Shown here one piece after another: positions 3,105 to 35,396 of a DNA stretch of 64,000 bases; the first letter of the stretch is position 1; every line of letters starts with the position of its first letter. Source of the stretch: Halioxenophilus sp. WMMB6 (lineage in GTDB: Bacteria; Pseudomonadota; Gammaproteobacteria; Pseudomonadales; Cellvibrionaceae); contig NZ_JAWMQR010000007.1 in NCBI RefSeq assembly GCF_033283405.1, forward strand, positions 148,807-212,806. The letters are read 5' to 3'. A program made the position numbers and the translations under genes. The notes beneath the pieces are model-generated. The model searched no databases and was not told where the DNA came from. It was given only the letters and a program-made list of their open reading frames with translations.

Positions 3105-3940
3105 TGGCGGATCAGGATCAACCCCCGGTCATCAATAACCCCTGGAGCAAACTGCGCGCCTTTACCGCCGCCCGCATCGCTTTGGGGCGGGCCGGCAGCA
3201 GCCTGCCCACCGAGCCACTGTTGGCCTTTCAGCTGGCCCACGCTCAGGCGCAGGATGCGGTGCACCTGCCACTGAATGTGGCGCAACTGGCGGCCGAGCT
3301 GGCGTCGCTCGGCTGGGGTGAGGCCATCGCGCTGCACAGCCAGGCCCAGGACCGGCGCCACTATCTGCAACGGCCGGACCTCGGCCGGCGCCTGGAGCAA
3401 GCCTCTTCTGCCAGGCTGCGGGCACAGGTGGGTGTTGACCAGGATGCATCGGCCAGGCCAGAGGTCGATCTGGCCATCGCTGTGGTCGATGGTCTCTCCT
3501 CGCTGGCGGTGCAGAGCAACACCCTGCCGTTTTTACAGGCACTTAAGGGCTGCCTGGCGGCCGACGCTCAGCCCTGGTCACTGGCGCCGCTGACCATTGT
3601 CGAGCAGGGGCGGGTAGCCATAGGTGATGAGATCGGCGAACTACTCAATGCCCGGGCAGTGGTGGTGCTGGTGGGTGAACGGCCGGGGTTGAGTTCTCCC
3701 GACAGCCTGGGCCTCTACTACACCTGGCGCCCCCGGCCGGGTCGCACCGATGCCGAGCGCAACTGCATCTCCAATATTCGCCCCCAGGGGCTGAGCTACC
3801 AAGAGGCGGCCAACCGCCTGCGTTACCTGCTGAACGAGTCCTGCCGCCTGCAACTCTCCGGCGTCAACCTGAAAGACCGTAGTGATGATCAGGTTATAGA
3901 GCACCAGGGTGGAGCAAAAAACTTTCTCCTGCCTCAGTAA
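3104..3940 (+). CDS. eutC: ethanolamine ammonia-lyase small (light) subunit
   Basis: ATG at 3104 overlaps the eutB stop. [36 protein letters not shown] is the typical EutC N-terminus. The upstream in-frame extension to 2990 is rejected as a shadow of eutB. Confidence 0.88.
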
Positions 3941-25418: not shown

Positions 25419-26627
25419 ATGCCTATTAAAATGGAATTAAACAAAAATAGCGGCAACGGTGGTAAGCCGGTAAAAATTTATACGCATGACATTGAACAGA
25501 CAGCACTTACGCAGTTAAAAAATATTGCGCAACTACCATTTATTCACTCCCATATTGCCGCTATGCCGGATGTGCATACTGGTATAGGGGCAACGGTCGG
25601 TTCAGTGATTCCCACCGTGGCTGCCATTATTCCCGCCGCCGTGGGTGTTGATATCGGCTGTGGCATGATGGCAGTACAGCTCTCATTAAACTCGGCACAA
25701 CTGCCCGATGGTTTGGCGGCTATGCGCAGTGCTATTGAGCGGGCCGTGCCGGTGGGGCTGGCAGCACACAAAACGGTTGCTGTGCGGGAGAGCGCCTGCA
25801 AGCGCTTGCAGCCGCAGGTAGAGGCGCTGTTTGAACGCCACCCGCAATTGTTAAAAATGCAGAAGCACCCCAGGCAAACCTGGGCCAAGCAGGTCGCCAC
25901 GTTGGGTTCGGGTAACCACTTTATTGAAGTGTGTATCGACGAATCGAAAAAAGTGTGGGTGATGTTGCACAGTGGTAGTCGCGGGATTGGTAACAGCATC
26001 GGCCGTTACTTTATTCAGTTGGCCAAAAAAGATATGCAAGGTCATATTCATCATCTACCCGACAGAGACCTGGCGTACTTTGCTGAAGGCAATGACCATT
26101 TTGCCGACTATGTGGCGGCGGTGGAGTTTGCCCAGGAGTACGCGCGGATCAATCGGGAAGAGATGATGAAACTGGTGTTGCGCGCTATACAGCCTTTTCT
26201 ACCGGGCTTTGTTCTGCAAAAAGAGGCGATTAATTGTCACCATAATTATGTGGCGCGTGAACACCACTTTGATGCTGACGTGTATGTTACCCGCAAGGGG
26301 GCCATCAATGCCGAGCATGGGCGCTTGGGAATTATTCCCGGCAGTATGGGGGCTAAATCCTACATTGTGCGCGGTAAGGGTGAAGCGGAATCATTTTGCT
26401 CCTGCTCGCACGGTGCCGGCCGCACCATGAGCCGTACTGCGGCGAAAATGCAGTTTCGGCGCGAGGATTTAATTGCTCAGACCCGCGGTGTTGAGTGTCG
26501 TAAGGATGCTCACGTCATTGATGAAATTCCCGCGGCCTACAAAGATATCGACGAGGTGATGACCAATCAAACTGACCTGGTTGATATCGAACACACACTT
26601 AAGCAGGTACTTTGTGTGAAGGGCTAG
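25419..26627 (+). CDS. rtcB: RNA-splicing ligase RtcB (3'-phosphate/5'-hydroxyl RNA ligase)
   Basis: 402 aa. Conserved RtcB motifs (DVHTGIG, GSGNHF, HSGSRGIG, CSHGAGR) seen directly in the translation. Confidence 0.9.
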   Translation: MPIKMELNKNSGNGGKPVKIYTHDIEQTALTQLKNIAQLPFIHSHIAAMPDVHTGIGATVGSVIPTVAAIIPAAVGVDIGCGMMAVQLSLNSAQLPDGLAAMRSAIERAVPVGLAAHKTVAVRESACKRLQPQVEALFERHPQLLKMQKHPRQTWAKQVATLGSGNHFIEVCIDESKKVWVMLHSGSRGIGNSIGRYFIQLAKKDMQGHIHHLPDRDLAYFAEGNDHFADYVAAVEFAQEYARINREEMMKLVLRAIQPFLPGFVLQKEAINCHHNYVAREHHFDADVYVTRKGAINAEHGRLGIIPGSMGAKSYIVRGKGEAESFCSCSHGAGRTMSRTAAKMQFRREDLIAQTRGVECRKDAHVIDEIPAAYKDIDEVMTNQTDLVDIEHTLKQVLCVKG

Positions 26628-30562: not shown

Positions 30563-30859
30563 TTTTATAATCGTTATTTTTCGAACATCACAGCATAACC
30601 AGAATAATTTAAAGCTACCACCCGAGGCAAAACAAAATATCGCTATTGTGGAAAACTATAGCAGCGAATTTGACGCCACTAATGCAATTCCTCAAGTAAA
30701 GTTGACCGGCTGGCGGAAAATTTTTGAATGCGTATTAAGTAATGAACATTCAAGGAGTGCGCACTGATGCCATTTTTATGGTGGCCTTAATCCGTTAATT
30801 GCCAGCCTGTAGTTGGATAAAAAGTGCTTAACTGTTGAATTGATTGCCGGTGGCCTGCG

Positions 30860-30901
30860 CTGATGGCTGATGGCTGATGGCTGATGGCTGATGGCTGATG
30901 G
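30860..30901. repeat. heptanucleotide microsatellite (CTGATGG)x6
   Basis: Six perfect tandem copies seen directly. Confidence 0.95.
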
Positions 30902-30989
30902 TTATTCCGAATTTTTACAAATCTTGATGCAAGCGTTGCGGGAAGAGTTCTGTGAGCTGGCAGCGGGTGCCGGTTCTACCGGTACCTAA

Positions 30990-32578: not shown

Positions 32579-32880
32579 AATCGTTCCTCCATTAATGATC
32601 GTTTCTCTATTATTAATTTAAAGCGAGGCTCACTGAGCCGGGTCGCGGCTAACGGTTTGGCTTGTTCAGGCGAAGACTCAGGTGTTTGCCGGCAGCCATA
32701 GGCGATGACAAAAGCCACCCGACGGTTGAAGACAAAACCAGAAGCCTGCGCGTGCACAAGCCACCCACCATGAGCGGTTACCCGGCTCGGGTTGGTTTGA
32801 ACCGCATTACCTGAACTGCCGGCAAAGACGGAATCTGGCCAACCGTGAACCTCTAGTTGATTTATAAACAAGCACCATAA

Positions 32881-32940
32881 GCTTGTGAGGACTCGAACCT
32901 CTGGGTCTCTCGACCTCTACCATTGAGCCGTTTACACGGC
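32881..32940 (-). other. tRNA-like remnant (D-arm-like GCTCAATGGTAGAG plus T-arm-like GAGGTTCGAGTCCTC, no anticodon arm)
   Basis: Motifs seen directly. Only about 13 nt between the D- and T-arm motifs. Followed by a CAAGC-TTATGGT-GCTTG hairpin. Confidence 0.4.
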
Positions 32941-33721: not shown

Positions 33722-34012
33722 TTACCGATAAAAATTTGCGCCATCGATGGATCGATAGCCGCAACTGTTTAAAAGCGTGCCGAGCTGTGCCCGCCGGCTG
33801 CGATCAGATTCGGTCAGCACCACTCTGTTCGGTAGCCGTGATCGGCTTTGCGCCCAGCGTAAAACCACACAGCTGTTGTCCCGTCCGTGTAGTGAAAAGT
33901 CGACCGCCAACACCGAGATGACCAATTCGTTCAGCGCCTTTTTAGCGCTGCGGCTGTCTCTGCAGTAGAGGTCTGCACTGAACACAGCGCGTTTACCCAA
34001 AGCGACTCGCAT
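33722..34012 (-). CDS. hypothetical protein (96 aa), co-oriented 18 nt upstream of HNH gene
   Basis: Very strong SD (AAGGAGGAG) before ATG 34012. Lies directly downstream of the tRNA-Lys gene. No recognisable domain. Confidence 0.45.
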   Translation of the reverse strand: MRVALGKRAVFSADLYCRDSRSAKKALNELVISVLAVDFSLHGRDNSCVVLRWAQSRSRLPNRVVLTESDRSRRAQLGTLLNSCGYRSIDGANFYR

Positions 34013-34051: not shown

Positions 34052-34126
34052 TGGTTGGAGGTATGGGAGTCGAACCCATCTGTGCCGGAGTAAAAGTCCG
34101 GTGCTCTGCCGCTAAGCCAACCCCCA
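34052..34126 (-). tRNA. tRNA-Lys (anticodon UUU), CCA encoded
   Basis: Manual cloverleaf: acceptor TGGGGGT/ACCTCCA, anticodon arm CCGGA-CTTTTAC-TCCGG, T-arm ATGGG-TTCGACT-CCCAT, discriminator A then CCA. Confidence 0.8.
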
Positions 34127-34168: not shown

Positions 34169-34243
34169 TGGCAGCAGCCTCAGGGCTCGAACCTGAAATA
34201 CGTGAGTCAAAGTCACGTGTGTTACCCATTACACCAGGCTGCT
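34169..34243 (-). tRNA. tRNA-Gln (anticodon UUG), CCA encoded
   Basis: Manual cloverleaf: acceptor AGCAGCC/GGCTGCT, D-arm GTGT-AATGGGTA-ACAC, anticodon arm CGTGA-CTTTGAC-TCACG, T-arm TCAGG-TTCGAGC-CCTGA, discriminator G then CCA. Confidence 0.8.
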
Positions 34244-34279
34244 GGAGTACTAAATTTAATGGTGATCAATATCATTGGC

Positions 34280-34366
34280 TGGCAGCGGTGAGATTCGAAC
34301 TGACACGGCGCCGCAAGTCACCGCACGGATTAGTAATCCGCTGCCGTACCGTTCAGCCATGCTGCC
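34280..34366 (-). tRNA. type II (long variable arm) tRNA-like gene with anticodon loop TTACTAA (anticodon ACT; Ser-like), mismatches in acceptor (A7:C66) and T-stem (C:C); possible pseudo-tRNA
   Basis: Manual fold: GGCAGCA-TG-GCTG-AACGGTA-CGGC-A-GCGGA-TTACTAA-TCCGT, about 20-nt variable arm, GTCAG-TTCGAAT-CTCAC, CGCTGCC-A. No CCA. Confidence 0.4.
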
Positions 34367-34410
34367 AATAATCTTCCCGTTTGAGTTTTCTGGCTCGCTT
34401 GGCCATAAAA

Positions 34411-34439
34411 AAACCCCGGGGTTGCCCACCGGGGTTTTT
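34411..34439. terminator. bidirectional terminator-like hairpin (A7-ccccgg-ggttgccca-ccgggg-T5)
   Basis: Seen directly, upstream of the minus-strand tRNA array. A second 7-bp hairpin ccggaagg...ccttccg follows. Confidence 0.5.
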
Positions 34440-34639
34440 GCGAACCGGAAGGCATCAGCCTTCCGCGGAATGCTGATATTAAAACAAAATAAGCGCCTGG
34501 CTTAGGCCGAAGCTCTGGTCGTCACACAGGTGGCCACTGGTCGCTATTAACAGTGTTTTGGCAGCGTGGACGGCAATCGCTTGCAGGTGACCTATTGGTT
34601 GTTGGTTCATCGCTATTCTTAATTGGGTAGTCATTAATT

Positions 34640-34678
34640 TGTTTTCTGTTTTCTGTTTTCTGTTTTCTGTTTTCTGTC
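34640..34678. repeat. heptanucleotide microsatellite (TGTTTTC)x5.5
   Basis: Seen directly. Followed by hairpin ctcgct-tgcgatagc-agcgag plus T5 (plus-strand terminator-like). Confidence 0.95.
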
Positions 34679-35396
34679 TGTGCTATTTCTTAGCCCTCGC
34701 TTGCGATAGCAGCGAGCTTTTTAAACGATACGGCCCCAAAAATATTTTGGCAATGCGAATTATTTTGGCGTTCTTGTTGAATTTATACTTTGGTTATAAC
34801 GCCACCAGGGCTGCCATTTTTGCTAGGGCGAGCGCTGGCCTATCGCACTGTTTGACGATATTGCAGACGAGGGTGTTGGTAGAAGATCTGGATTTATTGC
34901 AGAGCTTCCCCGCCGGTAAAAATGGTTGCTTCATATAGAAATAATTAGTCTAAGCCCTTTCTCTCTATTGCCTCGATTTACGTTTATTGATTCAACTTTC
35001 AGGTGAAAAAAAACCCGAAAAGCGTGTTGGCCTTCCGGGTTTCTCGATCTGTGAATGGTCTGTTGAGACGGCGACTGCGAGAGCTGGAAGGCGGTGCCTG
35101 CCAGAACTCAATTCCTACAGGCAAATTATGGGCGCTGGAAATCCTCCTGAGTGAGATTTAACACTCGGGCGGCCCTGGGGTAACAACTGTTATGTTTGGT
35201 GATTGAAAAAATCATTGCTGTAGCTTCTAAAAAAGTGGGCGGATTATAGGTGAGCTATTTAACCGGCACAACCAGTGCTGTGGTGGCGGTTTTGGTGGGC
35301 GAGCGGATTTACACGATAAGTGGTTGCCATTGATGATTTAACGCCGCTGGGGTCGGTTTAACCCGCAAGCAGGGCTTGCGGGTGGGTGGCGCAGGA

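Follow-up and report, generated by a model that had tools for sequence, protein, structure and literature searches.

Does a tRNA gene with an anticodon outside the bacterial repertoire record decay, or a function? The question is raised by a stretch of 64,000 nucleotides from Halioxenophilus sp. WMMB6 (contig NZ_JAWMQR010000007.1, positions 148,807 to 212,806; hereafter the window), in which a long-arm, serine-type tRNA gene with anticodon ACU and mismatched stems heads a small tRNA islet. The standard bacterial serine anticodons are UGA, CGA, GGA and GCU. We found that tRNA-Ser(ACU) is, as judged from sequence comparison, a recurrent and structurally conserved species of viral tRNA clusters, not just a product of decay. 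The window gene itself is, with a probability of about 0.55, a drifting or decaying copy, at best a weakly active AGU-specific serine tRNA; the serine tRNAs with A at position 34 (A34) in viral clusters are probably the more interesting result.

The element is a real class II serine-type tRNA gene with A34 and genuine stem mismatches. The initial annotation had described it in these terms, and every stem and loop listed there is present. ARAGORN, proposed as a check, calls a tRNA-Ser(ACU) on the minus strand (Table 1), in agreement with the Rfam tRNA model (RF00005), which matches at 34366..34280 with 40.4 bits against a gathering score of 29 (E = 4.5e-05 for the whole window) and returns exactly the boundaries annotated initially. 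In the canonical register the acceptor GGCAGCA/CGCUGCC has six pairs and an A7·C66 mismatch, followed by A73 and GCC. The D arm, GCUG-AACGGUA-CGGC, combines 4 bp with a 7-nt loop, and the anticodon arm is GCGGA-UUACUAA-UCCGU. The variable arm of about 19-20 nt, with a stem of 6-7 bp (CGGUGAC/GGCGCCG, one A·G), is the long arm of class II tRNAs. In the T arm, GUCAG-UUCGAAU-CUCAC, the loop fits UUCRANY and the 5-bp stem is interrupted by a C51·C63 mismatch.

The 3′ end reads ...CGCUGCC-A-GCCA, and the base preceding G1 is U. ARAGORN uses a register shifted by +1, in which a U-A pair and six more Watson-Crick pairs are followed by an A·C mismatch, G73 and an encoded CCA. The absence of CCA reported initially is thus a one-base register effect, GCCA lying one base later. 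Homology indicates that, relative to other serine tRNAs, the window gene has one extra A ahead of G73 and an A7 facing C66. Among 202 serine tRNAs of mobile elements used for comparison, 172 have G73 and 172 a CCA tail (separate tallies). With canonical bacterial tRNA-Ser(GCU) the gene shares the class II architecture, U8, G18G19, C11-G24, the UUCGAAU T loop and U33...U36-A37-A38, and many Ser(GCU) genes have the same anticodon arm apart from position 34. It differs from them in A34 instead of G34, in the 7-nt D loop on a 4-bp stem, in the two stem mismatches and in the extra A before G73-CCA.

Is ACU, then, an isolated accident? An exact scan of uncultured viral contigs (IMG/VR) with the window anticodon arm CGGATTACTAATCCG returned 74 loci. 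In 55 of them the arm lies inside a canonical, fully paired tRNA-Ser(ACU) gene; these genes comprise 28 distinct sequences and occur in clusters of 1-20 tRNAs. We aligned 16 viral representatives with the window gene (17 rows, 25 stem pairs). Each representative forms all 25 pairs, 98.6% of the alignment cells pair, and 15 of the 25 pairs show compensatory change; all six unpaired cells belong to the window row, part of them resulting from its one-base acceptor indel. The viral genes score 52.6-58.9 bits with the Rfam model. The scan itself fixes ACU in this set; that it is maintained is indicated by how diverse, and how structurally intact, the tRNA bodies around it are.

With G34 in place of A34, the arm is commoner in the viral contigs (at least 120 loci). 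The ACU-bearing loci are more AT-rich (median GC 37.4% versus 40.8% in GCU-bearing loci), and their AGT/(AGT+AGC) ratio is 0.73 as compared with 0.59. A census of 1172 unique viral tRNAs not selected by the arm scan (viral loci L201-L320 and L101-L120) revealed a non-standard A34 in 10 of 58 serine tRNAs (nine AGA, one ACU) and in 4 of 1080 others (Fisher p=5e-11). In two of these loci (L107 and L111) the Ser(AGA) gene occupies the position held by Ser(UGA) in relatives. The initial annotation had held that A34 in this islet was more than random decay; for the serine gene, the recurrence and structural conservation of Ser(ACU) in viral clusters and the concentration of A34 in their serine tRNAs bear this out.

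The window gene has in common with the viral genes (L123-L194) the identical arm CGGA-UUACUAA-UCCG and the serine long arm, and like them it belongs to a tRNA cluster borne by a mobile or accessory element. All stems are paired in the viral genes, which carry G73-CCA in the normal register and reside in AT-rich, AGU-preferring genomes, whereas the window copy lacks some of the stem pairs, is damaged and sits in a chromosome of 52-55% GC that prefers AGC. The bodies are only ~75% identical, a figure inflated by selection through the arm. That a serine tRNA gene is seen here is not a matter of chance: the 15-nt arm is identical to that of 55 viral genes and the 5′ half of the gene is close to a viral Ser(GCU) described below. 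The window tRNA, used as a query, had no match in GenBank phages, plasmids or E. coli genomes; the viral Ser(ACU) sequences had, among GenBank phages, only relatives of at most 78% identity or partial matches, with no near-identical gene and no cultured phage that could be named. A D-arm pattern scan of the viral contigs gave six matches, none within a tRNA. No description of a tRNA-Ser(ACU) class was found in the literature searched.

In some viral Ser(ACU) genes (83-84 nt in L136 and L165; 83 nt in L143, L161 and L170) the variable arm is short and the acceptor and T stems are irregular, e.g. GGAAGGUUCGCAUAAUGG. For this irregular type ARAGORN draws two different registers.

Why would ACU be acceptable in a serine tRNA? 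Seryl-tRNA synthetase (SerRS) identifies its tRNAs by the acceptor stem and the long variable arm and disregards the anticodon, so a change of position 34 would cost nothing in serine charging, and replacement of G34 by A would leave charging intact. An unmodified A34 would form a Watson-Crick pair with U and serine would be inserted at AGU only, which is the correct meaning of this codon; among the single-base changes of GCU, ACU alone would keep decoding a serine codon and so avoid mistranslation. ACU could thus persist in AT-rich, AGU-preferring viruses because it would be charged normally and read AGU as serine, and it would be harmless in the host because it would read AGU only, again as serine. 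The usual account is that A34 is avoided in split codon boxes such as AGN, since inosine would misread. In E. coli, an ACU tRNA decoded AGU with no detectable reading of AGC or AGA and no inosine conversion (PMC11066159). Bacteria and archaea are without A-starting anticodons other than ACG and AAG, and the same holds for cyanobacteria and hence for cyanophages (PMC3152331).

Two broader explanations of A34 were considered and rejected. A toxicity filter alone, in which purifying selection removes anticodon mutants that mistranslate, would explain the change of GCU to ACU, but not those of CAU to AAU or CCA to ACA (see below), where the synthetases concerned do recognise the anticodon. Nor does a synthetase blind to the anticodon suffice as a cause, as viral tRNA-Leu (0/119) and tRNA-Ala (0/47) show no A34.

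The presence of A34 also raises the idea that it is deaminated to inosine, in which case the tRNA would read AGU, AGC and AGA, broadening serine decoding and placing serine at AGA arginine codons, which are rare in the host (1.5 per 1000 codons). The triplet U33-A34-C35 does match part of the TadA target in tRNA-Arg(ACG), but tRNA-Arg2 has C32 where the window gene has U32, and position 36 differs as well (U36, not the G36 of ACG). With its UUACUAA loop the gene does not appear to belong among TadA substrates with an Arg(ACG)-like loop. Moreover, the E. coli ACU tRNA that acquired no inosine carried its anticodon in the Arg2 loop context, and on other substrates TadA was blocked when position 32, 37 or 38 was altered (PMC11066159). 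We consider inosine at this position highly improbable.

How sound is the window copy itself? Its Rfam score is 12-20 bits below those of intact relatives, namely the viral Ser(ACU) genes and the Ser(GCU) gene of the related 28-tRNA array L082 (60.0 bits). Acceptor and T stems are free of mismatches in 184 of the 202 comparison serine tRNAs, while the window gene has two mismatches there, and the pair at position 51 is mismatched in only 2 of the 202. To the two broken stem pairs is added the one-base indel at the 3′ acceptor end. A terminator-like hairpin, part of the leader element el2 (Table 1), lies 36 nt upstream, and a promoter scan between el2 and the tRNA gave no match. The host codon counts are 117 for AGT and 304 for AGC, i.e. 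AGC is 2.6 times commoner and AGU makes up only 28% of AGY codons; we infer that this low use of AGU leaves little need for a tRNA-Ser(ACU), hence a gene that drifts and is at best weakly active. By folding energy the window gene and an intact relative are not distinguished: its cloverleaf lies 4.8 kcal/mol above the minimum free energy, that of the L082 Ser(GCU) 3.1.

Several observations weigh against a decaying copy. Relative to the L082 Ser(GCU), five stem pairs have changed at both bases in a compensatory way (as read from the alignment), which implies that most of the history of the gene passed under structural selection and that its defects may be tolerable. In the shifted register seven perfect pairs, G73 and CCA are regained, which could represent a working acceptor stem of eight positions. 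The other three tRNAs of the islet are intact, a sign that the islet is either still selected or recently acquired. In addition, the likeness to viral serine tRNAs is inflated, since these were chosen through the common anticodon arm.

Such observations lead to a tentative alternative, a working specialised serine tRNA, in which RNase P would cut one base earlier and thus yield a U(-1)-A pair, an 8-position acceptor, G73-CCA and a geometry like that of selenocysteine tRNA (tRNA-Sec), with AGU read for the host or for the module. A broader version, to which we give a similarly limited weight, has Ser(ACU) as a working accessory class of viruses and chromosomal arrays, undescribed in the literature searched, and the Halioxenophilus gene as an expressed member whose acceptor has slid to a Sec-like 8+5. 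Both neighbouring tRNAs encode CCA, as this gene does in the shifted register; intact tRNA-Ser(ACU) is maintained in viruses; and the divergence from Ser(GCU) relatives is compensatory in the stems. SerRS charges 8/5, 9/4 and 8/4 branches, and tRNA-Ser of the 8/4 kind occurs in phage clusters (PMC5389517). The eighth acceptor position, however, is an A·C mismatch, a U(-1) would pair with A about 1 time in 4 by chance, and ARAGORN picks spurious +1 registers in other viral tRNAs too. C51·C63 interrupts the T stem midway, where 16/16 viral ACU tRNAs and 200/202 mobile-element serine tRNAs have a pair. The preference of the host for AGC and the hairpin upstream, with no promoter match between it and the gene, speak for drift as well.

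The long variable arm, the 8-position acceptor and G73 of the shifted register, together with the location in a tRNA cluster, also recall tRNA-Sec, with which the initial annotation had suggested a comparison, and the allo-tRNAs, either of which would recode a codon. The comparison with tRNA-Sec turned out negative: tRNA-Sec has a UCA anticodon, a 6-bp D stem with a tetraloop, an 8-bp acceptor and a 5-bp T stem, whereas this gene has ACU and a 4-bp D stem with a 7-nt loop, and attains 8+5 only with two mismatches. Allo-tRNAs have a 12-bp branch (8/4 or 9/3), a long D stem and a tetraloop (PMC5389517), whereas the acceptor and T branch here spans 13 positions and the D stem is short. Within its Rfam clan the general tRNA model scored highest, and AGU already means serine, so nothing would be recoded. 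We regard recoding as the least probable of the explanations discussed here. The (8/4) tRNA-Ser, allo-tRNAs and tRNA-Sec, a group of serine-type tRNAs charged by SerRS and known from phage tRNA clusters, have acceptors longer than 7 bp (PMC5389517), and the window gene recalls them in its serine type and, in the shifted register, in its longer acceptor. It has 8+5 positions with two mismatches, not an 8/4 or 9/3 branch, and neither a long D stem with a tetraloop nor a 6-bp anticodon stem.

From which gene might the window copy descend? The related arrays yielded only one serine tRNA, that of L082; its anticodon is GCU, and it shares 66% identity with the window gene. By contrast, Gln, Lys and AAU of the window reach 85-93% identity with the nearest orthologues in the arrays. 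Read against the L082 gene, the serine gene of the window has lost pairs 7:66 and 51:63. The nearest body identified is that of a Ser(GCU) in the viral tRNA array L274 (78% identity), whose D loop, AACGGUA, and anticodon arm are those of the window gene apart from G34; along the 5′ half we counted by eye 3 differences in 35 nt of the alignment. As the L274 gene has the same 7-nt D loop, this loop is a natural subtype, not damage. The initial annotation had reasoned that clear alignment as a recently pseudogenised Ser(GCU), together with an intact Ser(GCU) elsewhere, would reduce the case to ordinary decay. On the first of these points, the gene does align with Ser(GCU), but at 66-78%, which speaks of old divergence and not of recent pseudogenisation.

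The second A34 tRNA of the islet, named Ile(AAU) by its anticodon, has a different history. Position and sequence alike mark it as an orthologue of the CAU tRNA located after the HNH gene in related loci; its identity to the copy in L088 is 93%. Relative to these orthologues, with loop CUCAUAA, its loop UUAAUAA shows C34 changed to A and C32 to U. Its acceptor, GUUUUUG/CAAAAAC, is also that of the L082, L083 and L088 copies, U1 being present in L084; the discriminator base is A, G or U depending on the copy. When the viral contigs were scanned with the AAU arm, 1 of 120 matches listed lay in a tRNA, as against 55 of 74 for the ACU arm. The initial annotation had proposed a shared origin or function for the two A34 tRNAs; the derivation of the AAU gene from a CAU tRNA and the rarity of its arm in viral tRNAs contradict the shared origin. 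Both loops are indeed of the UUA(N)UAA type with A34, but tRNAs with NNU anticodons are expected to have U33, A37 and A38, so the shared look is largely what such anticodons entail and not a sign of common origin. The loop of the L082 Ser(GCU) orthologue is UUGCUAA, and U32 in the AAU copy is a further change, beyond the C32 of its CAU orthologues.

The module family comprises 93 tRNAs, of which four have a non-standard anticodon, in each case with A34. Besides the two window genes, a 'tRNA-Cys(ACA)' (L083 5850-5924) is the orthologue of the L082 Trp(CCA) with C34 changed to A and G18 to C, and a 'tRNA-Leu(AAG)' (L084 8693-8766) is the post-HNH CAU tRNA with A34, G36, G37 and a U1·C72 mismatch. 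The array cases other than the serine gene (CAU to AAU, CCA to ACA and the L084 AAG) look like decay.

The 4/4 incidence of A34 invites the further suggestion that tRNA-shaped RNAs are kept here for a role other than decoding, as a processing signal of a polycistron or as a decoy or spare against tRNA-cutting toxins, within a module for RNA damage and repair. RNA-repair genes recur beside the module (L081, L082, L090 and an RtcB gene in the window), a functional link being putative. One report regards tRNA arrays as putative anti-defence systems (PMC12803027), and altered anticodon loops can let phage tRNAs evade tRNA-targeting nucleases (PMC10264068). No such nuclease or toxin was identified in the module, however, the L083 and L084 variants are otherwise damaged (G18 to C; U1·C72) in the manner of decaying genes, and a non-decoding role gives no reason for ACU specifically. 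We think it unlikely.

What kind of locus holds the serine gene? Compared by gene order and homology, the islet is a four-tRNA remnant, complete at its edges and internally eroded, of a conserved accessory tRNA-array module of marine Gammaproteobacteria (Table 1). The order el1, el2, tRNAs, 96-aa protein, HNH endonuclease, tRNA, structured RNA and Band_7 protein is common to loci L081-L100. ARAGORN and the Rfam model find the same four tRNA genes in the window, the three besides Ser scoring 58-67 bits; as first annotated, the serine gene heads the array, with intact tRNA-Gln and tRNA-Lys coming next.

Table 1. Coordinates of the tRNA islet and its module partners in the window
Feature	Position	Strand	Evidence and remarks
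tRNA-Ser(ACU), class II	34276..34367	minus	ARAGORN; Rfam at 34280-34366; Ser(GCU)/Ser(ACU) alignments; mismatch statistics
tRNA-Gln(UUG), intact, CCA encoded	34169..34243	minus	85-92% identity to array orthologues
tRNA-Lys(UUU), intact, CCA encoded	34052..34126	minus	90-92% identity to L081 and L088 orthologues
tRNA 'Ile(AAU)', named by anticodon	32941..33016	minus	Intact structure, 67 bits; U73, no full CCA
el1 leader element	34989..35046	minus	Terminator-like hairpin AAACCCGGAAGGC..CGGGUUUUUUUU; upstream module edge, ~550 nt before el2
el2 leader element	34403..34476	minus	Hairpin CGGAAGGCUG..GCCUUCCGG, then terminator-like hairpin AAACCCCGG..CCGGGGUUUUUU
96-aa module marker protein	33722..34012	minus	No Pfam family; AlphaFold pLDDT 87
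HNH endonuclease, 185 aa	33146..33703	minus	Pfam HNH_5/HNH; between the tRNAs
Conserved structured RNA, ~110 nt, four hairpins	32830..32940	minus	Directly after the AAU tRNA
SPFH/Band_7 protein, 384 aa	31424..32578	minus	Pfam; conserved downstream gene

The related loci differ widely in tRNA content. L082 has 28 tRNAs, a GOLLD RNA, the gene for the 96-aa marker (97 aa in this family), the HNH gene, the CAU tRNA, Band_7 and two RlaP genes; L083 has 20 tRNAs and the same partners; L081, L084, L087-L089, L094, L095 and L100 have 2-12 tRNAs; and in L090-L093 and L099 the 97-aa gene remains but all tRNAs are gone. Ser, Gln and Lys in the window are collinear with L082. Erosion in place is indicated because L095 and L100 share a chromosomal site with different tRNA sets, and because the 97-aa gene is kept without tRNAs in L090-L093 and L099.

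L082 is a metagenome contig; its 97-aa gene and its HNH protein (P0005, 63% identical to that of the window) are of a family otherwise found in marine Gammaproteobacteria. Its GOLLD RNA (198 bits, 3218-3699) is situated within the 28-tRNA array and itself contains a tRNA-Gln(CUG) gene (3286-3361). The tRNA-Leu genes of the arrays (UAA, UAG, CAA) are only 77 nt long and lack the usual long variable arm (L081 4402-4478, L082 2264-2505, L083 6453-6529, L088 4563-4639). The arrays also carry tRNA-Arg(GCG) instead of the usual Arg(ACG) (L082 4217-4292, L083 7217-7292, L087 330-405), and the array set is independent of TadA because of this replacement.

By blastn, el2 is conserved in L082, L083, L086, L088, L094, L095 and L100, with a weak NsiR1-like terminator match, and el1 in L081, L083, L084, L090, L095 and L100. 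Both elements are conserved although the proteins of the loci are only 50-60% identical, and they flank a variable stretch of ~550 nt upstream of the array. Each could be a small RNA gene, an attenuator or a boundary. The 97-aa family comprises 53 proteins, all from marine Gammaproteobacteria or metagenomes. The top Foldseek matches of the window protein are REC domains (E ~0.15, TM 0.55), and its predicted fold weakly resembles a truncated receiver (REC) domain. The marker protein was absent from the viral contigs, sequenced plasmids and phages searched, and a metagenome scan gave only three loci.

The HNH protein is 100% identical to a Halioxenophilus sp. WMMB6 protein, and its closest homologues (59-64% identity) sit in tRNA arrays. 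Around HNH homologues of at most 58% identity, 80 genome loci had no nearby tRNAs except one tRNA-Leu and one tmRNA. The HNH family as a whole was therefore rejected as a guide to tRNAs, only the closest subfamily being linked to arrays. The same Band_7 gene lies downstream in L082, L083 and L084 (blastn ~70-72%).

The structured RNA matches L082 5769-5880, L083 9160-9270, L084 8767-8880 and L088 5995-6110 at 84-91% (blastn). It contains a T-arm-like GAGG-UUCGAGU-CCUC, a D-loop-like UCAAUGGUA, a hairpin GYCGU..ACGRC and a further hairpin. The consensus fold shows compensatory changes, among them a covarying hairpin GGUC-GAGA-GACC / GGCC-GAGA-GGCU. No Rfam match was obtained at E<=1. This RNA may mimic the tRNA elbow.

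How does the locus compare with described tRNA arrays? These units, dense clusters that nearly cover the code and spread horizontally in bacteria, plasmids and phages, are defined by at least 20 tRNA genes and at least 2 per kb (Tran et al. 2016, PMC4758250), and HNH endonuclease is the commonest coding sequence associated with them (Morgado and Vicente 2018, PMC5966550). L082 (28 tRNAs) and L083 (20 tRNAs) fit this description, whereas the window with only four tRNAs misses the 20-gene definition; it does share the associated HNH gene, in the arrangement also seen in L081-L084, L095 and L100. The module of marine Gammaproteobacteria has in addition partners of its own: two leader hairpins, the 97-aa receiver-like protein, the CAU-type tRNA with the structured RNA and the SPFH protein. 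None of these fixed partners came up in the array literature searched, in which they were not searched for by name.

The combination of a tRNA array with an HNH gene was thus known already; the accessory array tRNA with an anticodon outside the bacterial repertoire is the addition. It led from a chromosomal gene to a set of natural ACU (and also AGA) serine tRNAs in viral clusters, with clean cloverleaves and abundant compensatory changes, in genomes whose codon usage favours the matching U-ending codon. A natural tRNA with unmodified A34 is tRNA-Thr(AGU) of Mycoplasma. Such unmodified A34 tRNAs are peculiarities of organelles or Mollicutes, or else laboratory constructs, whereas the A34 tRNAs described here are serine-specific and carried by mobile or accessory clusters. 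Like the orthogonal ANN tRNAs, which read mainly U-ending codons (PMC11066159), ACU would read AGU. If this holds, the viral genes would be natural material for studying decoding by unmodified A34 in vivo, for which mostly engineered tRNAs have served so far; mobile elements would be able to extend the anticodon set where the synthetase ignores the anticodon; and the window would document the erosion of an accessory tRNA cluster once it is fixed in a chromosome.

A few minor observations concern the surroundings of the module. RNA-repair genes are found nearby in several loci: RtcB in the window (25419-26627, plus strand, ~5 kb away), an RNA ligase (PF09414) in L081 (5650-6696), two RlaP genes in L082 (7356-9025), and Tpt1/KptA with NrtR, PARG and NADAR in L090 (5988-8998). 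The window also contains two tandem repeats, TTTTCTG in about five copies (34640-34680) between el1 and el2, and GCTGATG in about six copies (30859-30907) in the AT-rich gap between a GGDEF-EAL gene and Band_7.

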